DNA of 64,000 bases from Eledone cirrhosa (lineage: Eukaryota), in the NCBI GenBank assembly GCA_964016885.1, contig OZ024752.1, positions 27,156,001 through 27,220,000 of the forward strand. The letters are read 5' to 3'. The notes under the pieces are model-generated. The model ran no database searches and had not been told where the DNA came from. It saw only the letters and a list, made by a program, of their open reading frames with translations. Made by a program: the position numbers and the translations under genes. Of the stretch, positions 5,289 through 64,000 are shown one piece after another. Every line of letters begins with the position of its first letter. Position 1 is the stretch's first letter.

Positions 5289-5406
5289 ATTATGTAATAA
5301 ACAACATAAGGCAATTATTCCATTTACCAGTGGTTTCTTAAAAGCAAAAGGTTTTGCTTTCAATCCTCAGAATGAAAAATCCTGGTTATATATATATATA
5401 TATATT

Positions 5407-6144
5407 GTAAGTATGCATGTATACGTACATACATATATGTATACAGACGTACAGTAGCATGCACATATATATATATATATACATATATACATACATATGC
5501 ATACAGGTACACATACATATATGCACGTATCAGTTTAGCGGCGCTTATTATAACGTCGCTTTGTTCGTTTGTAAACAAACTGAACAGCCTGAATTTATGC
5601 CATACGGTGTTAAGGCAACCACGTCACCTTTTTTGTTCAACACTGACACAGGAACGATGTACTAGTTTCAAGCTTGTTAGCTATCATCAGCACCTTTTAC
5701 CCATCTGCCAGATAGTTGAACGTTCGAAAGTATATACTTTCCTTATGAAAATTAACGGCTGAGCAGCCTAATTTGCATATTGAGTGAGTTAAATCGGTCA
5801 GGCATACCGAAAACGATAAATTGAAACAAAATGAAAACGAAATTTCATTTCTCACTCTTAGTATGGCACTTACTTAAATGTAAGTATGCATGTATACGTA
5901 CATACATATATGTATACAGACGTACAGTAGCATGCACATATATATATATATATATACATATATACATACATATGCATACAGGTACACATACATATATGCA
6001 CGTATCAGTTTAGCGGCGCTTATTATCACGTCGCTTTGTTCGTTTGTAAACAAACTGAACAGCCTGAATTTATGCCATACGGTGTTAAGGCAACCACGTC
6101 ACCTTTTTGTTCAACACTGACACAGGAACGATGTACTAGTTTCA
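5407..6144 (-). mobile_element. Retrozyme family 1, inverted arm (~1.5 units)
   Basis: Reverse complement of the 6142-8452 units; minus-strand HHR at 5654-5696. Confidence 0.85.
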
Positions 6145-6207
6145 GCCGTTAATTTTCATAAGGAAAGTATATACTTTCGAACGTTCAACTATCTGGCAGA
6201 TGGGTAA

Positions 6208-6250
6208 ACGGTGCTGATGATAGCTAACAAGCTTGAAACTAGTACATCGT
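6208..6250 (+). ncRNA. Minimal type I hammerhead ribozyme
   Basis: acggtg CTGATGA t agct-aaca-agct t GAAA ctag TA catcgt: stem I acggtg/catcgt, stem II agct/agct, palindromic CUAG stem III, GUA cleavage. Confidence 0.88.
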
Positions 6251-6681
6251 TCCTGTGTCAGTGTTGAACAAAAAGGTGACGTGGTTGCCTTAACACCGTA
6301 TGGCATAAATTCAGGCTGTTCAGTTTGTTTACAAACGAACAAAGCGACGTTATAATAAGCGCCGCTAAACTGATACGTGCATATATGTATGTGTACCTGT
6401 ATGCATATGTATGTATATATGTATATATATATATATATATGTGCATGCTACTGTACGTCTGTATACATATATGTATGTACGTATACATGCATACTTACAT
6501 TTAAGTAAGTGCCATACTAAGAGTGAGAAATGAAATTTCGTTTTCATTTTGTTTCAATTTATCGTTTTCGGTATGCCTGACCGATTTAACTCACTCAATA
6601 TGCAAATTAGGCTGCTCAGCCGTTAATTTTCATAAGGAAAGTATATACTTTCGAACGTTCAACTATCTGGCAGATGGGTAA

Positions 6682-6724
6682 ACGGTGCTGATGATAGCTA
6701 ACAAGCTTGAAACTAGTACATCGT
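6682..6724 (+). ncRNA. Minimal type I hammerhead ribozyme
   Basis: Same as 6208-6250. Confidence 0.88.
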
Positions 6725-7159
6725 TCCTGTGTCAGTGTTGAACAAAAAGGTGACGTGGTTGCCTTAACACCGTATGGCATAAATTCAGGCTGTTCAGTTT
6801 GTTTACAAACGAACAAAGCGACGTTATAATAAGCGCCGCTAAACTGATACGTGCATATATGTATGTGTACCTGTATGCATATGTATGTATATATGTATAT
6901 ATATATATATATATATATGTGCATGCTACTGTACGTCTGTATACATATATGTATGTACGTATACATGCATACTTACATTTAAGTAAGTGCCATACTAAGA
7001 GTGAGAAATGAAATTTCGTTTTCATTTTGTTTCAATTTATCGTTTTCGGTATGCCTGACCGATTTAACTCACTCAATATGCAAATTAGGCTGCTCAGCCG
7101 TTAATTTTCATAAGGAAAGTATATACTTTCGAACGTTCAACTATCTGGCAGATGGGTAA

Positions 7160-7202
7160 ACGGTGCTGATGATAGCTAACAAGCTTGAAACTAGTACATC
7201 GT
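7160..7202 (+). ncRNA. Minimal type I hammerhead ribozyme
   Basis: Same as 6208-6250. Confidence 0.88.
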
Positions 7203-7633
7203 TCCTGTGTCAGTGTTGAACAAAAAGGTGACGTGGTTGCCTTAACACCGTATGGCATAAATTCAGGCTGTTCAGTTTGTTTACAAACGAACAAAGCGAC
7301 GTTATAATAAGCGCCGCTAAACTGATACGTGCATATATGTATGTGTACCTGTATGCATATGTATGTATATATGTATATATATATATATATATGTGCATGC
7401 TACTGTACGTCTGTATACATATATGTATGTACGTATACATGCATACTTACATTTAAGTAAGTGCCATACTAAGAGTGAGAAATGAAATTTCGTTTTCATT
7501 TTGTTTCAATTTATCGTTTTCGGTATGCCTGACCGATTTAACTCACTCAATATGCAAATTAGGCTGCTCAGCCGTTAATTTTCATAAGGAAAGTATATAC
7601 TTTCGAACGTTCAACTATCTGGCAGATGGGTAA

Positions 7634-7676
7634 ACGGTGCTGATGATAGCTAACAAGCTTGAAACTAGTACATCGT
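7634..7676 (+). ncRNA. Minimal type I hammerhead ribozyme
   Basis: Same as 6208-6250. Confidence 0.88.
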
Positions 7677-8105
7677 TCCTGTGTCAGTGTTGAACAAAAA
7701 GGTGACGTGGTTGCCTTAACACCGTATGGCATAAATTCAGGCTGTTCAGTTTGTTTACAAACGAACAAAGCGACGTTATAATAAGCGCCGCTAAACTGAT
7801 ACGTGCATATATGTATGTGTACCTGTATGCATATGTATGTATATATGTATATATATATATATATGTGCATGCTACTGTACGTCTGTATACATATATGTAT
7901 GTACGTATACATGCATACTTACATTTAAGTAAGTGCCATACTAAGAGTGAGAAATGAAATTTCGTTTTCATTTTGTTTCAATTTATCGTTTTCGGTATGC
8001 CTGACCGATTTAACTCACTCAATATGCAAATTAGGCTGCTCAGCCGTTAATTTTCATAAGGAAAGTATATACTTTCGAACGTTCAACTATCTGGCAGATG
8101 GGTAA

Positions 8106-8148
8106 ACGGTGCTGATGATAGCTAACAAGCTTGAAACTAGTACATCGT
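8106..8148 (+). ncRNA. Minimal type I hammerhead ribozyme
   Basis: Same as 6208-6250. Confidence 0.88.
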
Positions 8149-8487
8149 TCCTGTGTCAGTGTTGAACAAAAAGGTGACGTGGTTGCCTTAACACCGTATG
8201 GCATAAATTCAGGCTGTTCAGTTTGTTTACAAACGAACAAAGCGACGTTATAATAAGCGCCGCTAAACTGATACGTGCATATATGTATGTGTACCTGTAT
8301 GCATATGTATATATGTATATATATATATATATGTGCATGCTACCGTACGTCTGTATACATATATGTATGTACGTATACATGCATACTTACATTTAAGTAA
8401 GTGCCATACTAAGAGTGAGAAATGAAATTTCGTTTTCATTTTGTTTCAATTTATATATATATTAATATATATATATGCATAAATATT

Positions 8488-13449: not shown

Positions 13450-13809
13450 TAACAGGAGGCTGGATTGGTGTAAATCCTTGAAAGGTTTATTATACTATGA
13501 ACATTTCAATGACCGGGTTCAAGTATGAATCCGGTGACATCATCAGGTATTCAAAATATAACAAAGGAATATAACAGATAAAATCCATGGGGCTGAAAAT
13601 CAGAGACAAGAGGACGACCGTCTATTTAGCAGCTTCTACCTCAGTCGGCCGCCCTCTGACTTTTCAGCCCCATGGATTTTATCTGTTATATTCCTTTGTT
13701 ATATTTTGAATACCTGATGATGTCACCGGATTCATACCGAACCCGTTCATTGAAATGATCATAGTATAATAAACCTTTCAAGGATTTACACCAATCCAGC
13801 CTCCTGTTA
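13450..13809. mobile_element. Fold-back PLE pLTR with two opposed HHRs (+ 13710-13767; - about 13492-13550)
   Basis: ~155-bp inverted arms; atac CTGATGA tgtcaccgg...cgttcatt GAAA tgatca TA gtat; followed by (TA)n. Confidence 0.75.
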
Positions 13810-13810
13810 G

Positions 13811-13848
<38 letters not shown>

Positions 13849-13859
<11 letters not shown>

Positions 13860-14734
13860 TACAATATCAGAGAAAGCATTTTAGCGATACTCCGGCCAAA
13901 TTCCAACTCACTCAACAAACATTAGGAAATAAGTGATTATATTCCCAATTATGCGTTCGGGGTGCTAACTAAAAGTATTGCGTGGAAAATTGGCTGTATT
14001 ATTTCATACGAGACATATCGAATATATCTCTTCCCAGACGGACGTCTCGTTTCATTATAGGATTCCTACAATTTGGGTTAAATTATACCAATTTATGTAG
14101 GAGCTTGTATACCATCAATAGATATATATTCAAGTGGGCTCCTATAATTCATCAGTGAGTGCCCCAATAATACTAATATTGATAATCTAACCAACATCAG
14201 TATTTAGCGATAATCATCATCTGTGCCTGAGGTATCTGTCAGGTTGCCAGTCCAGCAGTTCTAAAGAAATGCTCAAACTGATTCAAAAATGAGGAAGTAA
14301 ATTACCGCAAAAAAAACCAATACATGCGCATGACAATGAACTCTAAAAGGAATTCAGGCCACGTGTTAAGAACTCAATTGGAAATTGAAAAAATATCTAT
14401 GTGTGACCAACATTTGATGACACACATATTTTCTCGGGCAAAATAACAGAATGAGATATAAGGAACAATCAATATTCATATATAAAAAATAAACAAAGAA
14501 ATTCTAACCTTATACCGGGAGAATTTCAAATCTGCTGCGCCAAGAGTAAATAAATAAATACAATATCGGAGAAAGCTTTTTAGCGATACTCCGGCCAAAT
14601 TCCAACTCACTCAACAAACATTAGGAAATAAGTGATTATATTCCCAATTATGCGTTCGGGGTGCTAACTAAAAGTATTGCGTGGAAAATTGGCTGTATTA
14701 TTTCATATGAGACATATCGAATATATCTCTTCCA
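13849..14734 (-). mobile_element. Retrozyme-like family 3: ~699-nt unit with ~185-nt terminal direct repeat
   Basis: 13849-14034 repeated at 14548-14734; HHR adjacent to the left repeat; (TA)n on both sides. Confidence 0.7.
14033..14159 (-). ncRNA. Type I hammerhead ribozyme with large branched stem II
   Basis: Minus strand ctca CTGATGA attatagga[two internal hairpins]tcctataat GAAA cgagacgtccg TC tggg. Confidence 0.72.
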
Positions 14735-14789
14735 TATATATATATGTGTGTGTGTGTGTATATATTTATTAAAATGACAGATTAAAGTT

Positions 14790-28627: not shown

Positions 28628-29282
28628 TATAGATAGGTAAATATACACGGGTGTGTATGATTGTGTATAGAAGATTATATTAATAAGAGGAATTCCAACT
28701 TTGTCTGATTTACTCGTTTTATTTACAATCCTTTAAAATATATATAATGGTATTATAATGAAATAGTATGATAGAATATTAAATTCTAAGTGTTAATTGA
28801 ACAAGTACTTTCATGCTTTCGCAATCTTCAGGTTCATGATATGTGGTGACAGTCGAGTTTGCAATTTTCAACTGTAATGAGATGGGTAAATTTCCTACCT
28901 TTTATACATTTTATACAGAGAAAAGTGGCTCCAGAATGCAAAGCCCTGTAAACTGTATTTCGACCAATCAGTGTGTAGTTTCACTGAATTACTACAGCTG
29001 ATTGGTTTAAGCGTCACGGCTGGTTGAGCATGCTAACGACCAATAGTCATATCCAACGTATCAATTGTTTTGCTTTTTTGAAATGATGAAAATAGCATTT
29101 TCTATTAATCATCACCATCAACATCACTTTTATTATTATTATTATTGTTGTTGTTGTTGTTGTTAGTGGTCGTGGTCATAGTGGTAGTAGAAGTAATACC
29201 CCTAGGCGTTATTATTGTTCATTTAGCTTGGGTTTGAATTTATCAATAAAATTCTTTTCTTTGATTTTTCTCTTGATTTCAT

Positions 29283-30452
29283 TTGGGCTGTGTTCCCGTT
29301 TACGCGAACTCTGTAATGGGATACTTAGAACAACAACTCTACCAAGAAATAGAGGAAAAATATAGTACTGACTTTAGAAAGTACATTGAAAAATCTTGGA
29401 AGAGATACCTTGACGACTGTTTCATCATCTGGACAGAATCTCTAGATACTCTGGATGAGTTCAATATCCTCCTGAATAACCTACACCCATCTCTCCAATT
29501 CACAAAAGAGATGAGTAGGACCAAATTACCATTCCTAGATATAATGATAATCAAAAACGACACCACCATTACCACGGATATATATTATAAACACACAGAC
29601 ACCCATCAATATCTGAATTTTAAGTCGTGCCATCCACCTCATACAAAACGCAACATCCCATACTGCCTAGCCAGAAGAATTTGTACCATTGTAGAAGATA
29701 CGAATACCAGGTACAAACGCCTAACAGAACTAAGAGAATTTTTGCTCAAACAAAAATACCCATCTCTACTTATAGAAAATGTCATACAGCGGGCTATAAA
29801 AATACCTATACAACAACTTAGAACAACCCAAAGAAGAAGAAACCAAGAACTGGTCATACCATTTATAATGACACACAACCCATGTCACCAGAATATCTTC
29901 AACACTGCCAAAGCAAACCTACCGATCATTGCTCAAAGTAATGAATTAAAAGGCTTAATCACAGATCGATCTTTGACTCTTAGTAAAAGACAGCCAAAAA
30001 ATTTGAAGCAATTGCTAACAAAAGCAAAGTTTGACCTTAACAACAAAGACCAATCATTCACTGTATCTAAATGCAATGATAATCGATGCGGCACATGTCA
30101 ATCCATACACGCCGGTCAATATATGAAAACAAAAACTGGAAAAATATTCACAAATGCAAATATGAACTGCAAAAGCAGAAATCTAATTTACTGCATTAAA
30201 TGCCCGAATTGTGAAGAACTATATGTCGGTCAAACTGGAAATGCACTATCGGAACGTGCACGGGTACACCGTCAACAAATCAGAGACCCAAATGTCCGTC
30301 AGATACCCCTAAGCGGCCACCTGGCAACATGTGGTCAGGGAATATTTATAATATTCCCATTCTACAAATTACACAGCCCAAATGAAATCAAGAGAAAAAT
30401 CAAAGAAAAGAATTTTATTGATAAATTCAAACCCAAGCTAAATGAACAATAA
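29283..30452 (+). CDS. PLE reverse transcriptase C-terminal half plus GIY-YIG endonuclease (5'-truncated, open)
   Basis: WKRYLDDCF, LPFLDI, DIYYKxTD, CNDNRCGTC linker, LIYCIKC..LYVGQT, RARVH; first few codons come from the inverted arm. Confidence 0.88.
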   Translation: MGCVPVYANSVMGYLEQQLYQEIEEKYSTDFRKYIEKSWKRYLDDCFIIWTESLDTLDEFNILLNNLHPSLQFTKEMSRTKLPFLDIMIIKNDTTITTDIYYKHTDTHQYLNFKSCHPPHTKRNIPYCLARRICTIVEDTNTRYKRLTELREFLLKQKYPSLLIENVIQRAIKIPIQQLRTTQRRRNQELVIPFIMTHNPCHQNIFNTAKANLPIIAQSNELKGLITDRSLTLSKRQPKNLKQLLTKAKFDLNNKDQSFTVSKCNDNRCGTCQSIHAGQYMKTKTGKIFTNANMNCKSRNLIYCIKCPNCEELYVGQTGNALSERARVHRQQIRDPNVRQIPLSGHLATCGQGIFIIFPFYKLHSPNEIKRKIKEKNFIDKFKPKLNEQ

Positions 30453-30827
30453 TAACGCCTAGGGGTATTACTTCTACTACCACTATGACCACGACCACTA
30501 ACAACAACAACAACAACAATAATAATAATAATAAAAGTGATGTTGATGGTGATGATTAATAGAAAATGCTATTTTCATCATTTCAAAAAAGCAAAACAAT
30601 TGATACGTTGGATATGACTATTGGTCGTTAGCATGCTCAACCAGCCGTGACGCTTAAACCAATCAGCTGTAGTAATTCAGTGAAACTACACACTGATTGG
30701 TCGAAATACTGTTTACAGGGCTTTGCATTCTGGAGCCACTTTTCTCTGTATAAAATGTATAAAAGGTAGGAAATTTACCCATCTCATTACAGTTGAAAAT
30801 TGCAAACTCGACTGTCACCACATATCA

Positions 30828-30866
30828 TGAACCTGAAGATTGCGAAAGCATGAAAGTACTTGTTCA
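30828..30866 (+). ncRNA. Minimal type I HHR in PLE pLTR
   Basis: tgaac CTGAAGA t tgc-gaaa-gca t GAAA gtac TT gttca. Confidence 0.8.
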
Positions 30867-31009
30867 ATTAACACTTAGAATTTAATATTCTATCATACTA
30901 TTTCATTATAATACCATTATATATATTTTAAAGGATTGTAAATAAAACGAGTAAATCAGACAAAGTTGGAATTCCTCTTATTAATATATATATATATATA
31001 TACATATAT

Positions 31010-32654: not shown

Positions 32655-33580
32655 GTACTAAGAGTGATAAATGAAATTTCGTTTCATTCTATTCCATTTA
32701 TCGTTTTCGGTGCGCCTGGCCGTCTGAACTTACTCGATATGCAAATTGGGCTGCTCAGCCGTTCATTTTCATAAGGAAAGTATATATTTTCGGACGTTCA
32801 ACCATCTGGCAGAAAGGTATACGGTGCTGACGATAGCTAATAAGCTTGAAACTAGTACATCGTTCCTGTGTCAGTGTTGAACAAAAAGGTGACGTGGTTG
32901 CCTAAACACTATACGGCGTAATTCAGGCTGTTTGTTTGTTTACAAACGAACAAACTGAGCATTATAATAAATGTTCGGTAAACTGATACGTGCATATATA
33001 TATGTGTGCCTGTATGTATATATATACATGCTACTGTACGTCTGTATACATATATGTATGTACGTATACATACATACTTACATTTAAGTAAGTGCCGTAC
33101 TAAGAGTGATAAATGAAATTTCGTTTCATTCTATTCCATTTATCGTTTACGGTGCGCCTGCCCGACTGAACTCACTCGACATGCAAATTGGGCTGCTCAG
33201 CCGTTCATTTTCATAAGGAAAGTATATACTTTCGGACGTTCAACCATCTGGCAGAAAGGTATACGGTGCTGACGATAGCTAATAAACTTGAAACTAGTAC
33301 ATCGTTCCTGTGTCAGTGTTGAACAAAAAGGTGACGTGGTTGCCTAAACACTGTACGGCGTAATTCAGGCTAACTGTTTGTTTACAAACGAACAAACCGA
33401 GCATTATAATAAATGTTCGGTAAACTGATACGTGCATATATATATGTGTGCCTGTATGTATATATATACATGCTACTGTACGTCTGTATACATATATGTA
33501 TGTACGTATACATACATACTTTCATTTAAGTAAGTGCCGTACTAAGAGTGAGAAATGAAATTTCGTTTCATTCTATTCCA

Positions 33581-33582
<2 letters not shown>
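32655..33582 (+). mobile_element. Retrozyme family 1b, two tandem ~442-nt units
   Basis: HHRs at 32821-32863 and 33263-33305 (CTGACGA core); ends on (TA)n. Confidence 0.82.
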
Positions 33583-37698: not shown

Positions 37699-39842
37699 AA
37701 TGAAAAATAACAGGTAGACATCATAAAAAGGTAATTTATTCCGTGTGCTTACAAATGTTTCCACGGTGGTACTACAGCCTAGTTATGCTATGTGCAAATT
37801 TACAAGAATTTGCAGAACTCAAATATCCAATACTGTGACCACTGTATCCTCAGAGCAGAATGGTAAAATGTACAATGTAAATACCCTTAAGTGGGGTTGT
37901 TGTGGAAGATAGAGTAGGAAAGGAAGAGAGAAAAAAAAGTAGGGGAGAGGGAGAGAGAGAGAAAGATATGCAGGGGTTGGAGAAGTAGCAGAGAGTGGTT
38001 TGTAGATATCTTAATCAAAATGTTGTGGTAGGGGTTTTATTATACTGGTTACTTTTGGAGAGATGCGTTGATAGTTAAGGTCGGAATTATTTATTGCCCC
38101 AGAGGGCAGGTTCATAGATGTGGAGAGGGAGGTAGGCCAAAGGCGAGAGAGAGAGAGTGTAATGGATGTAGAGAGAGAGGTAGAGAGGGGACAGACGAAG
38201 TTTATGTGGTGAGTGAACTTTGGGTTTGTAGTAGTAATCTGTGAATTGCACTGAGTTACCATTTATAGTGATAAGCAGTGTATTGTCTTGTAGTGTTGGT
38301 GGAAGAGAGGGTGGTTAGCGAGAAAGCGATGTTATAGTTACGGGTTCGAATGTTAAGTTATTTTATAGTGAGAGAATTTAGCTTTTAGTTTGTGGTTGCA
38401 GTATAATGATCGTTCAATTCTATCGTTAAGTAGTTTGTTTTGGGATTTTAATATGTAAAAGAGTTCAAGGTTACATAACCTGCAGTATTTCAATCCACTC
38501 CGATATGCACTTGCGCTGGAAAGTATATCCCATTTTAAGGTGAACTGTTGGTTGCGTTCACGGAGTTGCCAGGTCTTGTTGGCGAGCGTGCTCACAAAAC
38601 GGTGATTAGGATGTTTGATTGAGAATCGATGACGGTACCAGCGAGATTTAAACGAGGTGGTAGTAGATCCGATATAATACCATTTCTGGTCGTTCGATTC
38701 AACCGTGCATTGGTAAACAATGTTGGACTTTAGGCATTCATTCTTCAATGAACATCTTTCAGGTAGATGGCAGTTACATTCTTTGTGTGGGTAGCGGGTA
38801 TACCATGGATAGGTTGTGATAGCGGTACAGGTGGATTGTGTAATACCCGTCTCCCATTTAGTGGTTGGGAGGCATAATATTACGTTCTGCCCATCTGTTA
38901 CTAAAATGTTTTGTTTTGTAGAGTTGTTTAATTGCCTTAAGTTAAGTTTTTTTTATGTATGCTTCAAGGTTTGGTTCTGTGGAGTATGATAGTCTAATAG
39001 TTTTAGAGTTCAGAATTTTGCTGTATTTATAGGAACTAGGGAAATGTTTGTTGATTAACTTAAAGAATGAAAGAGATATTGTTGTACTATTCGAGGCATT
39101 AAAAATAGGATTGTACCAGATATACTTTCTACAACGTGATTTATTTAGTGGTGATTTTCTATTATTAGTATGTCTGGTAGTACTGTCTGTGTGCGCTTGT
39201 ATTTTAGTCTCCCGGTTACATATTCCTTGATTTCGTGTAGAGCTATGTGTGTTATGGAAATTCCTATCAATGTGGGTATGGAGTGAGTATGGGCATACCA
39301 ACGGGTCTTAAAGTTGTTGGAGGTCATGCCGATGTAAGATTTTTGCAATCATCGGTGCCTGAGATGACATCGCATTTGTATACGATATCATTTGTGAGGC
39401 ATTTGTTTTCAAGTGGGCATGCTTCCTTATTTAGGCAATTACACAGAGCCCCAGTCCGGGGATTGGGTTCGGAGGTGGTTGGCTTATTGGATTTTTTAGA
39501 ATTCTGGTTGGCTATATTCCTAGCTAGGTTAGGTGTGGTGGAGTAGGAGAGTCTTGTTGTGTTCTTATTAAAGATGGTGTGGTACCTATGTTGTATGGGG
39601 AAGTGTAATTTCAGCAAAGTGAAGAAAATCCTAGCTATCGGTGTAGAGACATCTCTATTGAAGGGAGGGTTGTACCAGCTAATCTGCTTATGCCTATTCC
39701 TCCTCTGCAATCTTGCGGTGGTTTCTAGGTATGTTATCTTTTCTTTAAATCCGCTGCGGGCGAGGGCGTCATTGTAGTAGGAGGCAGATGCGTTAAAAAG
39801 GAGAGGCCAGATATTCTAATAGAGACGCTTTTTACTAGGTTT
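37697..39842 (-). mobile_element. Decayed PLE with two tandem GIY-YIG segments
   Basis: ORF pieces 39324-39710 (WYNPPF..CNC..CPL..IVY), 39145-39348 (SYIGMT), 38942-39301 (WYNP), 38353-38748 (IVY..YYIG..CRLC); HHR at 37746-37857. Confidence 0.78.
37746..37857 (-). ncRNA. Type I HHR with ~90-nt stem II
   Basis: Minus strand tgct CTGAGGA tacagtggt...accaccgtg GAAA catttg TA agca. Confidence 0.65.
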
Positions 39843-45160: not shown

Positions 45161-45768
45161 GTCAGGTCACCATTTGGTGCTACTGGTAATATGTATCCCA
45201 GTACAACGTGTCTCATGGTCGGGTCGTTGGCGACTAAACTGGCAACCCCACCAAGGTTTCTTGGTGGGGAGGGTGACTTTGGACATCCTGCAGGACTAAA
45301 AACAAAACCTGTCAAAGGGCAAAAGAGCTCTTAAGAATCAATGGCCATCCAAAATCACCGGGAGAGATGACCCCTTATCCTTTGTCAAGGCAGAATTCTA
45401 GGAGAAGGAAAACTCTGATATAACACCTGCAACTCTGATGGTATCCAATGATGTTGACTTGTTCTTCTTTTTGGTAAATATCATCTTGGTTAAGAGAGTG
45501 GGACTGGCTTTGTGCAGTGCCTTTGCTCATTATAAAAGCTTCACGGCACAGGCATTGCTTTATATCTGGAGATCTCTCTGCACTTGTCGTCACATGGTAC
45601 CATGGGCCTAGCACTATGTATCAATAATTGTCACAAGTGCAGTGTTTGTACCAGAGTTTTCAAGTCGCTGGCTGGACTAAAAGTCACACTCATTCAGCGC
45701 ATCGGTAGGAGTTCTCCTACATGGATATAAAGTAGTGGCCGTACTCGAAAACGAGTTGACAGCCACCA
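45161..45768 (+). mobile_element. Non-autonomous bipartite RTE derivative (copy 2)
   Basis: Colinear with 42037-42642 end to end; (ATGT)n flanks. Confidence 0.65.
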
Positions 45769-45926
45769 TGTATGTATGTATGTATGTATGGTTATGTCGG
45801 GTCACTCTAGGGTGCTACAGGTAACAGGTAACCCATCACAACCTGTCGCAGTGTCGCTTCGTCGGCGACTAAACCGACAACCCCACCAAGTTTACTTGAT
45901 GAGGAGGAGGGAGGAGAAGGATGACG

Positions 45927-46077
45927 AGAAGAAGAAGAAGAAGAAGAAGAAGAAGAAGAAGAAGAAGAAGAAGAAGAAGAAGAAGAAGAAGAAGAAGAAG
46001 AAGAAGAAGAAGAAGAAGAAGAAGAAGAAGAAGAAGAAGAAGAAGAAGAAGAAGAAGAAGAAGAAGAAGAAGAAGAA
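45927..46077. repeat. (AAG)n microsatellite, left border of the R4/Dong array
   Basis: Direct reading. Confidence 0.95.
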
Positions 46078-47661
46078 ATGCGCCAAAGCAACGTTCACCA
46101 GAGGAAAGCTGCTGAAGAGTTCAGACATTAATCTTGATCGGGGGAACGTGATAAGAGAACTTGAACGAGAAAAAACTTACAAATATCTAGGTGTTTGTGA
46201 AGGAGACGGAATCAAGCACTCGACAATGAGGCAAAGGATAAGGAAGGAATGTTACCGCAGAGTAAGAGCAATCTTAAGAACGGAATTGAATGCAAGGAAT
46301 AGGATCGATGCCATAAACACGTTTGCCATACCAGTAGTAACCTACAGTTACAATGTCATCAACTGGTAAAGCACAGAGATCCGTAGGCTCGATACAAAAA
46401 TTCGAAAATTCTTAACCATGCACAGAATGCATCACCCTAAGGCAGATATAGATAGAATATATCTCCCTAGGAAAGAAGGAGGACGTGGGTTAAACCAGTT
46501 AGACATTGCGTTGAAAAATGCAACAATTGGATTATCTACATATCTAAGGGAATCACATGATTGGATGATCAAACTCGTTTTGAAACACGAAAGCACCAAA
46601 AGATCATATTCCATTACAAAAGATGCACAAAGATACAGTAATGGACTACATATTTCAGAAGTCCCATTTACTGCTGAAATGGATAACACAGAAAAAGCAA
46701 AGCAGGTAAAAGTAACTGCAAAGAAAGAACTGCTACAGAAACTGGCTAAGAAATGGCAAGAAAAGCCTCTGTATGGAAAATACCCAGAGCGAGCTAACAA
46801 TCCTGATGTTGACAAAACTTTAACCCATCAGTGGTTGGCATCCTCTGGACTGAAATCGGAGACTGAAGGACTGATTATATCAGCACAAGATCAGTGTCTG
46901 CCAACAAAAAATTACCAAGCCAACATAATAAAAAATGGATGCAGCCCATTATGCCGTGTATGCAAAAAACAACCAGAGACCATTGACCATATAATTTCAA
47001 TGTGCAGTCCTATAGCTCCAACCGAATACCTAAACAGGCATGACAGAGCTGCACAATACATACATTGGATGATGTGTAAGCATTTTGACCTGCCCCATCA
47101 AAAGAATTGGTGGGAGCATCAACCACCTCCCATACTTGAAAAAGATCACATCTCAATCTTGTGGAACTTTAGCATCCAAACTGACTGAAAAATAGATGCA
47201 AATAGACCTGATATAATATTGAAGGACTTTAAAAAGAGGGTATGCCTGCTAATTGATATGTCTGTTCCAATAGACAAGCATGTATCTATAAAAACATTTG
47301 AAAAATTGAGCAAGTATAAGGACCTGGAGATAGAAATTGGAAAAATGTGGAAATTGAGAACTAAAACAATACCAGTGGTTGTAGGCGCTCTGGGAATGAT
47401 ACCTAAGGGGTCTAATGATTACTTATCGCAAATCCCAGGAAACCCGCGTATAGGAGAAATACAAAAGATAGTACTAATGGGAACTGCCCATATACTAAGG
47501 AAGATTCTGTCAATATAAGTAGATCACAAGTCTAAACACTAAAGATGCATGTGTGAGTATGTATGTTCTTTCTTGAACATGGCGGACCTTGTTGTCTCTT
47601 GAGGTCACTGGTTGTGACTTGGTGATAACTCGTATGAACATAAAGCAAGATAAATGCAACT

Positions 47662-47746
<85 letters not shown>
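46078..47746 (+). mobile_element. R4/Dong-like non-LTR element family A, 5'-truncated, (TAA)n tail
   Basis: YKYLG, CRVC..ETIDHI..C, RHD, NRPDII..D..K RLE motifs; in-frame stops at 46367 and 47186; ends 47518, 3' UTR, (TAA)n 47663-47746. Confidence 0.85.
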
Positions 47747-50408
47747 GACATTGGAAAGCTTGAGTCACTACTGAATGGGACACTAAAAAACATAGGCACT
47801 AAAAATAGACTGGAAATAAAGTACAAAACTAGGAGGAAAAAGCTAAATATTATCATAGAGGAACTGAAGCAACGCATTGTAGCAAAGAGTGCAAAAATCA
47901 GGCGATACGAGAACAGAGTCAGTCAGTATAGACAGAACCGCATGTTCGACAACAACCAGAAGATGTTGTTTGGACAGCTTGAAGGGAAAGAAAGAGGCAA
48001 CGACTTGATCCCTGAGGCGGAACAAACTAAAACATTCTGGAGAGGAATATGGGAGCAGGATGTTAAACATAATGACCAGGCAGAAGGAGATCAGTGAACA
48101 GGCACACCAACAAACTGATTTGAGTATCACAGTTGAAACTCTTAAGGGGCAGGCCAAAAATCTAACCAACTGGAAATCACCAGGCCCAGATGGTGTGCAG
48201 GGGTATTGGATTAAAAATATAACATCCCTCCACCCGAAACTGACAACCATGTTCAATGACTGCTTGATGTCAGGTGAGGTACCAGAGTGGTTGACAAAAG
48301 GTACCACAGTTCTGATAATGAAAGACCGAATCAAGGGTAATGGTGTTACCAACTATAGACCTATCACATGTCTGTCCGTAATGTGGAAACTGTTGACAAG
48401 CATTATGTCTGAAGAAATCTACCATCACCTCCACACAAACAACTTGTTACCGGACGAACAGAAAGGATGCCGAAAGAAGTCACGTGGTACAAAGGACCAG
48501 TTACTTATTGATAAGATGGTAATGAGGAATTGCAAGAGGAGGCACACTGGTCTTGCCATGGGATGGATAGACTACAAAAAGGCATATGACATGGTGCCTC
48601 ATTCTTGGATCACCAAAAGCCTGGAGATCTTCAAGGTGGCAGATAACATCAGACAGTTGTTGGGCAAAAGTATGAAGTCCTGGGAAACAGAGTTAACATC
48701 AACTGGAGAATCCTTGGGAAGCGTGAAGATCAAGAGCGGTATCTTCCAGGGAGATAGTCTGTCCCCTCTGTTGTTTGTCCTTGCCCTGATGCCCTTGACC
48801 ATTATGCTGCGAAAAGTGAGAGCAGGATACACGTTGGGAAGGGGAGAGCTTACCATCAATCACCTCCTCTTCATGGACGATCTTAAGCTCTTCGGGAAAA
48901 GTGAGAAGGAGTTGGATGTGCTTGTTGACACTGTCCGTATTTTCAGCAGTGATATATGTATGCAGTTTGGTATTGGTAAATGTGGAGTCATTGTGATGAA
49001 GAGGGGTAGGTTGAGCAGAAGTAACGGGATCCAGATACCAACAGGTGAGATGATAAAGGAAATTGACTCTGAGGAAGGATACAAGTATTTGGGCGTTCTG
49101 GAGGCTGATGGCATAAAGAACAAAAAAATGAAGGAATTGTTAAGAACTGAATACATTCGGAGAGTAAGGAGCGTATTGAAGTCACATCTGAACAGCAGAA
49201 ATGCCATAAGCGCAGTAAATTCCCGAGCTGTGTCTATTATTAGGTACAGTGCGGGAATTCTGAGATGGAATGTTGCTGAACAAAAAGAAATGGATAGGAA
49301 GACTAGGAAGCTATTGACTATCTACAACATGTTCCACAAGAGGAGTGATGTCGATAGACTCTACCTAAGGAGATCTGAGGGTGGAAGAGGTCTTATCAGC
49401 ATAGAGGACTGTGTTCAGATGGAGAAAAACAAACCTATACAAATACGTGACCTATAGTAAGGAGCCAATGCTCAGAGCTGTACTGAAGGAGGGGACAGTA
49501 GGCCAGGGGATATCCAAGGAGGAAATAACATCAAGGAGGAAGAGCAGCCTTAACGGAAAATCCCTTCATAGTACCTTCTTTGAGAAAACTGAATTTAGAG
49601 ATCCACAGACATGGAACTGGTTGAGAAGAGGAGACCTCAAAAAGGCTACAGAAGGAATGCTAATGGCTGCGCAGGAGCAGGCCCTCAAAACGAAGTGGTT
49701 GAAGCACCATATCTACAAGGAGGAGGCTAGCCCACTGAGCAGGATCTGTGGAGAGAGAGAGGAGACTGTGGCTCACATTGTGTCCGAGTGTAAACACCTA
49801 GCCCAGACCCACTATAAGGGCTGGAGACACGATGTGATGGGCAGGGTGATCCACTGGCACCTGTGCAAAGTAAACAATCTACCACATTCTGAGAAATGGT
49901 ATGAGCATAGGCCAGAGGCGGTGATGGAGAACAGTCAGGTGAAGGTGCTGTGGGATTTTAGGATACAGACGGACAAAAAACTGGAACACAATAGACCTGA
50001 CCTGGTGGTTGTGGACAAAGAAAAAAGATCGTGCCTGATTGTGGATGTGGCCTGCCCGTTCGACACGAGAGTGCAAGAGAAGGAGAGGGAGAAAATTAAC
50101 CGATACCAGGACCTAAAGTGGGAGGTGAAAAGGATTTGGAACTGCCATGAAGTCAAAGTGATCCCGATTGTCATAGGCGCACTGGGGACTATCTCCAAAG
50201 GTTTCCAGGGATGGTTAAAGAAAATCGGCCCCTTCACGCTTTTTGGAACGCTTCAAAAGGCATGCTTGCTTGGAACAGCAAGAACCCTCCGATACGTCCT
50301 GAATATCTGAGGCTGCAGGTAGTGGCTTGATATTCAATCCAACGGACTTTCCAGTTAACCAACATCAATGACTGAGATTCAAGGAATAATAATAATAATA
50401 ATAATAAT
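47747..50408 (+). mobile_element. R4/Dong-like family B, 5'-truncated, (TAA)n tail
   Basis: ORFs 48060-49457 (RT: KSPGPD, DYKKAYD, GIFQGDSLSP, FMDD) and 49411-50310 (zinc knuckle, NRPDLVV RLE). Confidence 0.88.
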
Positions 50409-50849
50409 CACCGCTACAGCACCATCACTACAGTAATACGGTCACATCACCGCCACCACTGCCTCGGTATCGACATCACCACCACCACTGTCTCATTATC
50501 GCTACCGCCGCCAGTCCCCCACTTCTCCCAGCTGGTTGCTGCCACCACATTATAGAATTCCTACTACTGAAAAAGAGGAAGGCATCAAAATATATAGATA
50601 GACTCAAAAGAAAAAAGAAAAAACAAACAACAAAACCAAAGCAGCACAGCAACAACAGCAAAAAACGAGAAAAACAAACAGAGAAAAACAAAAACAAAAA
50701 AAAAACAAAAAACGTAAAGAAAATAAGAATGAAGAGAGAAGCAGGCGGACGGACAGAGAAGAGGGGGGAAAAACTAAAACTAAAAAAACAAAAACTAAGT
50801 CAGACATTCGAACACTACATTACAATGAAACTTATGCTTATTCATTTTT

Positions 50850-53800
50850 GGGGCCCTTTCTGCCTGTGTGTTTGTTTGTTTATGTGTGTTCGTATACAGC
50901 GTGGTGATAATGCCACACAAGGGCCAAGTGGAACGGCGAATCCACAGATGGCTATGTAACCATACATTCGCCAATCCTCGATAAGAGTGTTTAAATATCG
51001 AACATAAACAGTTCGAATAACGGTGAAATGGAGACTAGAACGTCATGTGACAGACTCTCACCCAACAGGTGCCCCCTGGCTCAGCAGCAGGAACCTGACT
51101 GTCAACCAAATACTGCTGATGTTGGAGGAAGAAGAAGAAGGAAAGGGGCCAGAACCAACTGGACGAAATAATTGAATAGAACTGTTATGCAATGTTACCT
51201 GAAAAGTAACCCCAAGGAGAGGGGCTACAGGACAAGGATGCATAACATCTGGAACGAGATTGGTTTATTTAAATTAGATGAACAAAAATTGGCCGGGCAG
51301 GCTCGGGTAATAAGAACTAATGGGTGGATAAGCGAGCTGGAACTGGAGGAACTGAGCAGAGAGAATGGCTTGGAGATGGCGGGTGTAGTATGCCAGACAA
51401 GCGAGCCAGTGGGAAATGAAGGTGAAGAGGTCCTGAGAACGGAGGGACCACCCGAAGCAGACAATGATCTGAATACTGAGATAAATAATACCTGGAACAG
51501 AGATACGGCCACTGAGGAGATGAATGCTGACGGGCTAGGACAAGATTCGGTTGACATCCTAAATTTAGTGGTAGATGAATTGAACAATGATAGTGGGAGA
51601 CCTATGAACCTAAGATATGTAGACAGGAAAAAGTTAAAAGAAACAACAGCTAAGGTAAACAAAGTCATCCCATACCTTGAGGCGAGGAGCCTTCACCAGT
51701 GCAACAATATACTCAAAGCAACAGCAAATACGGTGAGGAAACTACTTGGTATAAAAGCGAGAGGAAACAACAGACAAGAAAGAGCAGAGCCGTGGTGGAA
51801 GAAGCGACTGAGTGGTCAAATCGGGGAAATGAGAAATGACATAGGAAAGCTTGAGTCACTACTGAATGGGACACTAAAAAACATAGGCACTAAAAATAGA
51901 CTGGAAATAAAGTACAAAACTAGGAGGAAAAAGCTAAATATTATCATAGAGGAACTGAAGCAACGCATTGTAGCAAAGAGTGCAAAAATCAGGCGATACG
52001 AGAACAGAGTCAGTCAGTATAAACAGAACCGCATGTTCGACAACAACCAGAAGATGCTGTTTGGACAGCTTGAGGGGAAAGAAAGAGGCAACGACTTGAT
52101 CCCTGGGGCGGAGCAAACTAAATCGTTCTGGAGAGGAATATGGGAGCAGGATGTTAGACATAATGTCCAGGCAGGGTGGATTGAGACAGTACAGAGGGAG
52201 ATCGGTGGGCAGGCACAACAACAAACTTATTTGAGTATCACAGTTGAAACTCTTAAGGGGCAGGCCAAAAAACTAACCAACTGGAAATCACCAGGCCCAG
52301 ATGGTGTGCAGGGGTATTGGATTAAACATTTAACATCCCTCCACCCGAAGCTGACGGCCATGTTCAATGACTGCTTGGTGTCGGGTGAGGTGCCAGAGTG
52401 GTTGACAAAAGGTACCACAGTTCTGGTAATGAAGGTCCGAATCAAGGGTAATGATGTTACCAAATATAGACCTATCACATGTCTGTCCGTAATGTGGAAA
52501 CTGTTGACGAGCATTATGTCTGAAGAAATCTACCATCACCTCCACACAAACAACTTGTTACCGGACGAACAGAAAGGATGCCGAAAGAAGTCACGTGGTA
52601 CAAAGGGCCAGTTACTTATTGATAAGATGGTAATGGGGAATTGCAGGAGGAGACACACTGATCTTGCCATGGGATGGATAGACTACAGAAAGGCATTTGA
52701 CATGGTGCCTCATTCTTGGGTCACCAAAAGCCTGGAGATCTTCAGGGTGGCAGATAACATCAGACAGTTGTTGGGCAAAAGTATGAAGTCCTGGGAGACA
52801 GAGTTGACATCAACTGGAGTATCCTTGGGAAGCGTGAAGATCAAGAGAGGTATCTTCCAGGGAGATAGCCTGTCCCCTCTGTTGTTTGTCCTTGCCCTGA
52901 TGCCCTTGACCATTATGCTGCGAAAGGTGAGAGCAGGATACAAGTTGGGAAAGGGAGGGCTTACCATCAATCACCTCCTCTTCATGGACGATCTTAAGCT
53001 CTTCGGGAAAAGTGAGAAGGAGTTGGATGTGCTTGTTGACACTGTCCGTATTTTCAGCAGTGATATATGTATGCAGTTTGGTATTAGTAAATGTGGAGTC
53101 ATTGTGATGAGGAGGGGTAGGTTGAGCAGAAGTAACGGGATCCAGATACCAACAGGTGAGATGATAAAGGAAATTGACTCTGAGGAAGGATACAAGTATT
53201 TGGGCGTTCTGGAGGCTGATGGCATAAAGAACAAAAAAATGAAGGAATTGTTAAGAACTGAATACATTCGGAGAGTAAGGAGCGTATTGAAGTCACATCT
53301 GAACAGCAGAAATGCCATAAGCGCAGTAAATTCCCGAGCTGTGTCTATTATTAGGTACAGTGCGGGAATTCTGAGATGGAATGTTGCTGAACAAAAAGAA
53401 ATGGATAGGAAGACTAGGAAGCTATTGACTATCTACAACATGTTCCACAAGAGGAGTGATGTCGATAGACTCTACCTAAGGAGATCTGAGGGTGGAAGAG
53501 GTCTTATCAGCATAGAGGACTGTGTTCAGATGGAGAAAAACAAACCTATACAAATACGTGACCTATAGTAAGGAGCCAATGCTCAGAGCTGTACTGAAGG
53601 AGGGGACAGTAGGCCAGGGGATATCCAAGGAGGAAATAACATCAAGGAGGAAGAGCAGCCTTAACGGAAAATCCCTTCATAGTACCTTCTTTGAGAAAAC
53701 TGAATTTAGAGATCCACAGACATGGAACTGGTTGAGAAGAGGAGACCTCAAAAAGGCTACAGAAGGAATGCTAATGGCTGCGCAGGAGCAGGCCCTCAAA

Positions 53801-54532
53801 ACGAAGTGGTTGAAGTACCATATTTACAAGGAGGAGGCTAGCCCACTGTGCAGGATCTGTGGAGAGAGTGAGGAGACTGTGGCTCACATTGTGTCCGAGT
53901 GTAAACACCTAGCCCAGACTCACTATAAGGGCTGGAGACACGATGTGATGGGCAGGGTGATCCACTGGCACCTGTGCAAAGTAAACAATTTACCACATTC
54001 TGAGAAATGGTATGAGCATAGGCCAGAGGCGGTGATGGAGAACAATCAGGTGAAGGTGCTGTGGGATTTTAGGATACAGACGGACAAAAAACAGGAACAC
54101 AATAGACCTGACCTGGTGGTTGTGGACAAAGAAAAAAGATCGTGTCTGATTGTGGATGTGGCATGCCCGTTCGACACGAGAGTGCAAGAGAAGGAGAGGG
54201 AGAAAATTAACCGATACCAGGACCTAAAGTGGGAGGTGAAAAGGATTTGGAACTGCCATGAAGTCAAAGTGATCCCGATTGTCATAGGCGCACTGGGGAC
54301 TATCTCCAAAAGTTTCCAGGGATGGTTAAAGAAAATCGGCCCCTTCACGCTTTTTGGAACGCTTCAAAAGGCATGCTTGCTTGGAACAGCAAGAACCCTC
54401 CGATACGTCCTGAATATCTGAGGCTGCAGGTAGTGGCTTGATATTCATTCCAACGGACTTTCCAGTTAACCAACATCAATGACTGATATTCAAGGAATAA
54501 CAACAACAATAATAATAATAATAATAATAATA
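50850..54532 (+). mobile_element. Near full-length R4/Dong-like family B element (5' boundary uncertain)
   Basis: ATG at 51028, premature TAA at 51169, RT ORF to 53568, +1 shift to CCHC/RLE ORF ending 54421, 3' UTR and (TAA)n tail. Confidence 0.88.
51028..54421 (+). pseudogene. RT plus restriction-like endonuclease ORF of the family B element, disabled by one stop and one frameshift
   Basis: N-terminal RTNWTK*LNRTVMQCY, full RT motifs, CRICG..ETVAHIVSEC, RHD, RPD..D..K. Confidence 0.85.
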
Positions 54533-56481
<1,949 letters not shown>

Positions 56482-62874: not shown

Positions 62875-62979
62875 ATGTATGTATGTATGTATGTATGTAT
62901 GTATGTATGTATATATATAAAGAATATAAAGAATAAAATAACCAGGATGGTTGTCTTATCAACTTGTCTAAACAAATTA

Positions 62980-64000
62980 CATCGTTCCTGTGTCAGTGTT
63001 GAACAAAAAGGTGACGTGGTTGCCTTAACACCGTATGGCATAAATTCAGGCTGTTCAGTTTGTTTACAAACGAACAAAGCGACGTTAGCGCCGCTAAACT
63101 GATACGTGCATATATGTATGTGTACCTGTATGCATATGTATGTATATATGTATATATATATATATATATGTGCATGCTACTGTACGTCTGTATACATATA
63201 TGTATGTACGTATACATGCATACTTACATTTAAGTAAGTGCCATACTAAGAGTGAGAAATGAAATTTCGTTTTCATTTTGTTTCAATTTATCGTTTTCGG
63301 TATGCCTGACCGATTTAACTCACTCAATATGCAAATTAGGCTGCTCAGCCGTTAATTTTCATAAGGAAAGTATATACTTTCGAACGTTCAACTATCTGGC
63401 AGATGGGTAAACGGTGCTGATGATAGCTAACAAGCTTGAAACTAGTACATCGTTCCTGTGTCAGTGTTGAACAAAAAGGTGACGTGGTTGCCTTAACACC
63501 GTATGGCATAAATTCAGGCTGTTCAGTTTGTTTACAAACGAACAAAGCGACGTTGGCGCCGCTAAACTGATACGTGCATATATGTATGTGTACCTGTATG
63601 CATATGTATGTATATATGTATATATATATATATATATATGTGCATGCTACTGTACGTCTGTATACATATATGTATGTACGTATACATGCATACTTACATT
63701 TAAGTAAGTGCCATACTAAGAGTGAGAAATGAAATTTCGTTTTCATTTTGTTTCAATTTATCGTTTTCGGTATGCCTGACCGATTTAACTCACTCAATAT
63801 GCAAATTAGGCTGCTCAGCCGTTAATTTTCATAAGGAAAGTATATACTTTCGAACGTTCAACTATCTGGCAGATGGGTAAACGGTGCTGATGATAGCTAA
63901 CAAGCTTGAAACTAGTACATCGTTCCTGTGTCAGTGTTGAACAAAAAGGTGACGTGGTTGCCTTAACACCGTATGGCATAAATTCAGGCTGTTCAGTTTG
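62980..64000 (+). mobile_element. Retrozyme family 1 tandem array (more than 2 units, runs off the window)
   Basis: HHRs at 63411-63453 and 63881-63923; array starts at catcgttcc, the predicted 3' cleavage product. Confidence 0.88.

Follow-up and report, generated by a model that had tools for sequence, protein, structure and literature searches.

A stretch of 64,000 nucleotides of the genome of Eledone cirrhosa (assembly GCA_964016885.1, contig OZ024752.1, positions 27,156,001 to 27,220,000 of the forward strand; hereafter the window) contains, on its minus strand, a repeat that encodes no protein, carries a predicted hammerhead ribozyme and begins close to the site at which this ribozyme would cut. 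The question raised by this locus is whether such an element is a piece of a coding Penelope-like element (PLE) or the product of a self-cutting RNA that is copied back into DNA and, if the latter, on which template and by which enzyme. The evidence gathered from the window and from related copies in the 3.0-Gb assembly argues with good probability for a protein-free retrozyme, the ribozyme-cut RNA of which would be copied back into DNA, probably by a Penelope-type enzyme.

Organization of the Element in the Window

The whole element extends from 14734 to about 13848 and consists of an ORF-less monomer with a period of 699 nt followed by a partial second pass, as the first 187 nt reappear, with 3 substitutions (98.4% identity), at 14034-13848. 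No stop-to-stop frame inside this copy exceeds 61 amino acids, and (TA)n tracts are present on both sides, in agreement with the original prediction of a monomer of about 699 nt plus a terminal repeat running into (TA)n. The window copy holds just one complete ribozyme, and the whole monomer folds with a z score of -5.7 (0 of 20 shuffles as good). The element starts with GG where the cut product has UGGG, meaning that it begins at +3, or at +1 with a 1-nt deletion; it had been proposed to start within about 1 nt of the GUC cut, and the proximity was verified (at most about 2 nt from the predicted cut) but not a start exactly on it. The features of the locus are as follows:

14735..14760, minus strand: 5′ flank, (TA)n/(CA)n microsatellite in which a target-site duplication is unreadable
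14037..14734, minus strand: full ORF-less monomer, starting +3 (or +1 with a 1-nt deletion) from the hammerhead cut
13848..14036, minus strand: partial second pass that spans +1, the cut site, through +182 to +189, the fixed 3′ end; it matches the first pass at 98.4% identity
14161..14164, minus strand: GGGC lying 5′ of stem I and predicted to form a pseudoknot with GCCC; conserved, with no covariation
14156..14159, minus strand: 5′ strand of stem I, CUCA in the window copy and CCCA in most family A copies
14036-14033, minus strand: 3′ strand of stem I, UGGG, pairing with 14156..14159; C-G/U-A double change
14149..14155, minus strand: hammerhead core CUGAUGA
14054..14148, minus strand: branched stem II, in which a 9-bp helix (14148-14140 with 14062-14054) closes a three-way junction
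14136..14139, minus strand: GCCC, left unpaired in the stem II junction and predicted to be the other strand of the pseudoknot
14104..14134, minus strand: hairpin P2a; two pairs with double changes, basal helix with 98.8% of cells paired
14064..14102, minus strand: hairpin P2b; one pair with a double change, 99.7% paired
14037..14053, minus strand: GAAA core and GUC triplet with the short, near-palindromic stem III; 14037 is the last nucleotide before the predicted cut
14010..14030, minus strand: 9-bp hairpin just 3′ of the cut; a similar hairpin occurs in sister families
13848..13862, minus strand: AT-rich tract at which nearly all copies end; reverse transcription putatively begins here, within the RNA, and the tract shows microhomology to (TA)n
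13812..13848, minus strand: 3′ flank, (TA)n target

Directly past the 3′ (TA)n flank there is a long inverted repeat (13450-13810), and similar palindromic repeats flank many of the fetched loci. A 5S rRNA-derived sequence whose 3′ end decays into a microsatellite is found at 2641-2760 of the window.

A Clade of ORF-less Tandem Monomers

Genome-wide counts were obtained as exact pattern matches in the 3.0-Gb assembly, the reversed controls giving 0 matches in all cases. A 24-mer of the family of the window copy (family A) matched 967 times, a clade-wide 20-mer 6,937 times and a ribozyme signature 3,433 times. Family A is a young family of about a thousand copies, with a median divergence of 2.2% from the family majority; G+C accounts for 244 of the 702 majority positions and the copies are tandem repeats with one type I hammerhead per unit. 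Monomers of the clade measure 700-1030 nt and include those of sister family B (765 nt, colinear at 70%), family C (988-1030 nt, with no frame longer than 69 amino acids in the one tested) and several intermediates. An old family, G, was found by profile search and has a 696-nt monomer with 75-85% identity among copies. Clade sequence was also present in contigs of two sequencing runs, an observation that concerns presence only.

A coding PLE could also be the source, with the element as its tandem pLTR or as a piece from its interior, the latter having been named in the original prediction as a refuting outcome. PLE fragments often lie at 1.5 kb or less from clade copies, and Xenopus retrozymes are described as resembling pLTRs (10.64898/2026.07.22.740005). 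However, all 88 clade loci taken in genome order match ORF-less monomers, neighbouring ORFs are set apart by (TA)n or unrelated sequence, and family G lacks a consistent upstream ORF in 30 loci. An ORF combining RT and GIY-YIG domains was absent from the element and from the copies examined in these 88 loci. The search for longer tandem relatives recovered family A insertions of up to 3.6 monomers and no ORF-bearing relative among the 88 loci, while 42 insertions displayed exact monomer junctions and no clade copy ran into an ORF. The coding-element explanation is thus largely refuted and retains a very small probability, and the alternative put forward together with it, an ORF-less, tandem and retrotransposed element, is the one that the copies support.

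The Hammerhead Ribozyme and Its Branched Stem II

The type I hammerhead core is located at 14155-14037 and comprises CUGAUGA, a 9-bp stem II, GAAA and the GUC triplet with the cut predicted after 14037, the elements CUGANGA, GAAA and UH being present in type I order. The motif was missed by Rfam at the gathering threshold and at E<=5. In the minimum free energy (MFE) fold stem II encloses two hairpins, just as it had been drawn from the window copy alone, the z score of the 181-nt region being -1.98 (matched or surpassed by 6 of 200 shuffles). The active hammerhead fold is not the MFE of the isolated region, as the fold constrained to the full hammerhead reaches -37.6 vs -45.6 kcal/mol for the MFE, 8 kcal/mol higher.

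A structure alignment was built with 41 copies from several subfamilies, corresponding to 41 of the 45 extracted ribozyme regions (40 plus the window copy). Under the branched fold 96.1% of cells were paired, compared to 31-49% in slid controls, and six pairs with double changes were detected in stem I, stem II, P2a (two), P2b and stem III. The covariation score of the branched fold was reached by none of 500 shuffles, whereas the count of six double-change pairs alone does not beat the shuffle (194 of 500); these cells represent few events along a tree, and the kinship of the sequences inflates one control. Pair 10.1-11.1 was mismatched in 29 of the 41 rows (U-U in the alignment). In family G the same ribozyme layout is built from entirely different stem I and stem II sequences, and core and helices are retained across families down to 70% identity and beyond. 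Compensatory changes in five helices, seen when copies of different subfamilies are aligned, lend support to the branched stem II.

Stem III spans 8 to 13 nt and varies in sequence and length among subfamilies, with self-complementarity being kept. For its five commonest forms the calculated energy was -6.4 to -14.7 kcal/mol as a dimer vs +2.4 to -0.2 kcal/mol as a hairpin, and a palindromic stem III has been described in hammerheads that act as dimers (PMC4209133). The palindrome suggests cleavage as a dimer: because it is too short to fold alone, the hammerhead probably cuts in this form. In addition, the GGGC that precedes stem I is complementary to the GCCC of the stem II junction (92.7% paired in the 41 copies), in an invariant pairing that never covaries. 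Both strands are retained in the family G majority and occur in 14/28 and 12/28 decayed copies of this family (both in 9). By analogy with the pseudoknotted hammerheads (PMC3088659), the balance tips slightly toward a pseudoknot between these strands, the predicted geometry of which includes a 4-bp stem I and an 8-9-bp stem II.

Other hammerhead repeats were also detected. Tandem units of 442-474 bp with 97-99% identity and a consensus bearing a hammerhead core are located at 6142-8454, 32655-33582 and 62978-64000 of the window and probably correspond to another family of the original prediction. A further short hammerhead repeat has a GUA triplet and occurs in the window (5325-5370, minus strand) and in two fetched loci (L035:1170-1245 and L054, in oriented coordinates). 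A monomer with two ribozymes was considered on the basis of these two loci and was discarded, as family B had inserted in both at the 3′ end of the GUA-triplet repeat.

A Fixed 3′ End and the Footprint of Insertion

The ends of the insertions were analyzed in 90 family A loci taken in genome order, which were reduced to 87 by elimination of 2-3 tandem duplicates; for the count of 5′ ends, 4 split alignments and 1 internally broken copy were additionally removed (83 loci). The 3′ end was found at monomer position 174-189 in 83 of the 87 loci, giving a shared end ~183 nt past the hammerhead cut, and a homologous 3′ end is common to sister subfamilies and to family G. (TA)4 was present at the 3′ side in 78/87 loci and at the 5′ side in 57/87, and the AT-rich tract at the 3′ end itself resembles the (TA)n target. 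The 5′ ends were variable and spread over 0-3.6 monomers, lying in the 3′-most pass in 23 of 83 loci, in the next pass in 50 and further up in 10. Taken as a pattern among genomic copies, a fixed 3′ end with variable 5′ ends is a footprint of retrotransposition. The terminal repeat of about 185 nt proposed for the window copy is therefore real but its reading as an LTR is not, since the 187-nt repeat equals the stretch from the cut site to the fixed start site of reverse transcription.

All four 3′ register classes within the AT-rich tract occur in every one of the four main haplotypes (p=0.03 for an association). As the registers of the AT-rich tract are mixed in each haplotype, the cDNA start seems to be chosen anew inside the RNA and not inherited from the tail of the source copy. 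Neither an adjacent inverted arm of the same family nor a PLE tail was detected in the 87 family A loci, among which there was one head-to-head pair 1.1 kb apart; the 30-40-bp tail and the inverted 5′ arm of PLEs have been described as optional (PMC8557442). Two-armed insertions and a second start site at +156 were considered and rejected, as the inverted matches corresponded to other subfamilies (77-84%) with the usual end.

The Enzyme Behind the Insertions

Initiation of cDNA inside the RNA has been described as unique to PLEs, which also share the preference for AT-rich targets (PMC11167929); a (TA)n bias was reported for PLE clades (PMC8557442), and retrozymes were linked to PLE pLTRs in Xenopus (10.64898/2026.07.22.740005). 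PLEs are abundant in this genome (29,084 candidates). By analogy with these systems, the helper is probably a Penelope-type RT-endonuclease. In the sole PLE studied in vitro, ribozyme mutants had no effect on insertion (PMC11167929), and a sequence common to the clade and an ORF-bearing PLE was not found among the PLE fragments fetched, which are a small share of the 29,084 candidates.

Priming by a LINE-type RT on a (TA)n tail transcribed from the source copy, as for tail-bearing SINEs, would fit the absence of a PLE tail and inverted arm and of a PLE partner among the fetched fragments, and LINE-like RT frames are abundant in the window. Conversely, the haplotypes use all the 3′ registers and the internal passes lack a tail, the internal initiation is the very feature described as exclusive of PLEs (PMC11167929), and hammerheads with a short palindromic stem III are a trait of PLEs and retrozymes (PMC4209133). 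A LINE helper is thus improbable, and a Penelope-type enzyme is preferred.

Three candidate partners or relatives were discarded. The Neptune-like PLE of the window contains no sequence common to the clade; a branched hammerhead located 254 nt behind a PLE fragment (locus L214), considered as a partner pLTR, is an independent insertion of family G; and the hammerhead with a long stem II behind the window PLE at 38353 folds unbranched (z +0.64).

With regard to other retroelements of the window, a very young two-armed PLE is inserted in (TA)n at 28637-30975, with a GIY-YIG frame at 29277-30452. It bears a cysteine linker of the Neptune type. Its C-terminal 132 amino acids are 100% identical in more than 100 of the 150 genomic matches that were scored, many of which have a 775-amino acid open frame, and a small hammerhead-like motif is found within it near 30830-30865. 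A second hammerhead-like motif (37750-37853, minus strand), with an apparently unbranched stem II of 85 nt, is situated behind the PLE fragment 38353-39815, with (TA)n following 55 nt further on. Several broken elements with a LINE-type RT occupy 45731-55946; they carry an endonuclease-like motif at the C-terminus and are bounded by (TAA)n and (AGA)n tracts.

5′ Ends at the Predicted Cleavage Site

A genome-wide pattern for junctions at +1 to +5 gave 43 matches, most of them reading directly into UGGG, and a control pattern covering -4 to +1 gave 32 junctions, of which 28 were at +1, 2 at -1 and 2 at -2. With 731 read-through copies, a background of 0.0023 ends per nt (43 in 19,041 nt) and a flank pass rate of 45/83, ~1.0 junction per position was expected; the four upstream positions agree with this value and +1 has 28, a class that includes +2 starts preceded by a flank T and in which two rows may be one segmental duplicate. 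Compared to -2, the other position with a 1-nt T microhomology, the excess at +1 was significant (p=9e-7). In family B, 3 of 10 matches were at +1, 4 at -1 to -5 and 3 were not junctions, which weakly replicates the peak. The proposal of 5′ ends at the cut site, made from a single copy, thus finds its counterpart in a peak across the genome. With dozens of copies starting precisely where the cut is predicted, self-cutting of the RNA in living cells is likely, and the genomic +1 ends are likely a record of this cleavage in vivo.

That the peak reflects pausing of the RT at RNA structure, the ribozyme being inactive, was also contemplated. In line with this idea, there is also an excess of 5′ ends at +6 to +13, further clusters coincide with other AT-rich stretches or helix edges, and eight of nine Xenopus retrozymes showed no cleavage in vitro (10.64898/2026.07.22.740005). 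However, the peak is 1-2 nt wide and placed at the scissile bond instead of at helix entry (+4, -2, -17), with baseline values at -1 to -4, and the retention of core and helices across families down to 70% identity and beyond also argues against an inactive ribozyme. Pausing is therefore very unlikely to be the cause, and self-cleavage is favoured.

Among the 27 exact-start loci that were read, 25 were short (+1 to about +183) and 2 were long like the window copy, vs about 3.8 expected at an equal stop rate per lap (p=0.57), which is compatible with an equal chance of stopping on each lap. We infer that the RT encountered a cut RNA end in about 6% of crossings.

Circular or Linear Template

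In the 42 multi-pass insertions, the passes within an insertion disagreed at 20 of 459 polymorphic site-pairs vs 169 expected if they were independent, and 31 rare variants were common to the passes of one insertion vs ~1 by coincidence. Divergence between passes was 2.3% within and 3.2% between insertions, and the differences hardly recur among insertions (41 same-polarity vs 32 opposite-polarity pairs). At the internal junctions, 125 of 126 were exact and one had added bases. A signature of RNA editing was not seen among the rare shared variants (A>G in 4 of 31). Given the variants common to the passes of an insertion, one monomer would have been copied repeatedly and re-expanded with exact joints, and it is reasonably probable that a circular template best accounts for this repeated passage.

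Position +17 of the family A monomer, in the loop of the post-cut hairpin, shows a C/A polymorphism of ~50%. At this position, an exception to the scarcity of recurrent differences, four insertions of different haplotypes carry A in the upstream pass and C in the downstream one, the reverse being found in none.

Two explanations dispense with the circle. According to the first, only linear tandem transcripts, partly cut, serve as templates, and uniformity stems from DNA-level conversion or very young source arrays. Linear multimers of retrozyme RNA were indeed seen in axolotl (PMC7229834), and some copies stop at +1 on their second lap as well (2 long loci among the 27), which requires a linear end. 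On the other hand, lineage and rare variants are fixed across all the passes, followed by free divergence, and linear copying cannot give re-expansion, making this explanation rather unlikely. According to the second, the ends of a cut monomer are held together by stem I and the RT leaves the template at +1 or else crosses the nick by a jump, with no ligation involved. Such jumps would explain at once the +1 stops on every lap and the uniform arrays, and one junction does carry 2 extra bases. However, end-to-end jumps of R2-type RTs usually add bases, in contrast with the 125 of 126 junctions lacking them, and ~94% of crossings read through; nick jumping is accordingly given a low probability. 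For the family, a circular template remains the preferred reading.

The window copy itself is a different case. For the RT to halt at +1 on its second lap, the template must have had a linear end there; a linear multimer cleaved at the upstream ribozyme and left intact at the next is likely the best fit, or else a jump across a nick. As a simple circle does not explain a second-lap stop at the cut, the evidence for circles comes from the family as a whole. Reverse transcription more than once around a circular or cleaved monomer, one of the options raised at first, is hence sustained for the family, but the window copy does not agree with a simple circle.

A Model for the Mobility of the Clade

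Altogether, the following sequence of events can be proposed. Tandem copies would be transcribed and the hammerhead would cut after GUC, a site supported by the genomic ends; it would probably act as a dimer and possibly be aided by the GGGC/GCCC pseudoknot. Partial cutting would yield linear monomers, linear multimers and, after ligation, circles. A borrowed RT-endonuclease may then nick (TA)n and start the cDNA at the AT-rich tract ~183 nt past the cut, where the copies are seen to end. On cut RNA the enzyme would run off at +1, while on a circle or an uncut multimer it would read through and generate head-to-tail arrays; the window copy likely derives from the linear RNA described above.

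Relationship With Known Elements

The clade belongs to the known class of non-LTR retrozymes/non-autonomous Penelope elements, as a variant with a branched stem II. Like the metazoan non-LTR retrozymes, it consists of ORF-less, AT-rich tandem monomers with one type I hammerhead each and coexists with PLEs in the same genome (PMC7229834; 10.64898/2026.07.22.740005), and the axolotl retrozyme also has a dimer-type stem III and U-U at the base of stem II (PMC7229834). The element length falls within the 51-972 bp given for retrozyme consensus sequences (10.64898/2026.07.22.740005). In contrast, invertebrate retrozyme monomers are described as being of 170-400 nt, vs 700-1030 nt in the clade, and the stem II of metazoan retrozymes as a 4-bp hairpin, vs a 95-nt three-way junction; unlike them, the clade forms short dispersed arrays with a fixed 3′ end in (TA)n and genomic 5′ ends that mark the cut (PMC7229834; 10.64898/2026.07.22.740005). 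RNA, cleavage and circles have been demonstrated for retrozymes, whereas the clade is known from genomic copies (PMC7229834; 10.64898/2026.07.22.740005).

The hammerheads of PLE pLTRs share with the clade a 4-bp stem I, a long stem II and a palindromic stem III, and the pLTRs of Poseidon PAc and other PLEs share the AT-rich targets and a cDNA start in the RNA downstream of the ribozyme (PMC4209133; PMC11167929). Unlike them, the clade has no ORF, two-site tail or inverted arm, and there is microhomology between its start site and the target. No RNA ends were detected at the PAc cut, and the ribozyme is dispensable in vitro (PMC11167929), whereas in the clade about 6% of crossings stop there. 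Pseudoknotted hammerheads replace the loop-loop contact by a Watson-Crick contact between stem I and stem II, as predicted here, and tolerate U10.1-U11.1 as the clade does (PMC3088659); in the clade the strand that would pair is part of a multibranch junction located 8-9 bp into stem II and the pairing lacks covariation, and the available text on pseudoknotted hammerheads mentions no branched stem II (PMC3088659). Non-autonomous Chlamys PLEs such as MRC1 are likewise ORF-less, head-to-tail and targeted to microsatellites; their 3′ end resembles that of an autonomous partner and they mostly lack canonical hammerheads, whereas the clade has a hammerhead and no partner was found among the PLE fragments fetched (PMC8557442). 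In the main texts covered by a literature search, which came largely from outside the subscription journals, no animal hammerhead with a branched stem II was found, nor was the use of genomic 5′ ends as evidence of cleavage.

As Rfam does not detect this branched and possibly pseudoknotted ribozyme, the number of such elements is probably underestimated. Tentatively, these copies may represent a long-lived clade of animal retrozymes in which a hammerhead with a three-way-junction stem II presents a pseudoknot strand and cleaves obligatorily as a dimer, and whose insertions would record, base by base, self-cleavage in the germ line and the repeated passage of a Penelope-type RT, starting inside the RNA, around one circular monomer. 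In the literature available, cutting in vivo by Penelope and retrozyme hammerheads and the use of cut or circular RNA as insertion template have been proposed and not demonstrated. The single-base peak at +1 and the uniform arrays provide genomic evidence for the cut- and the circular-RNA routes, with exact positions named for both, the cut at +1 and the start of the cDNA at +178 to +189.
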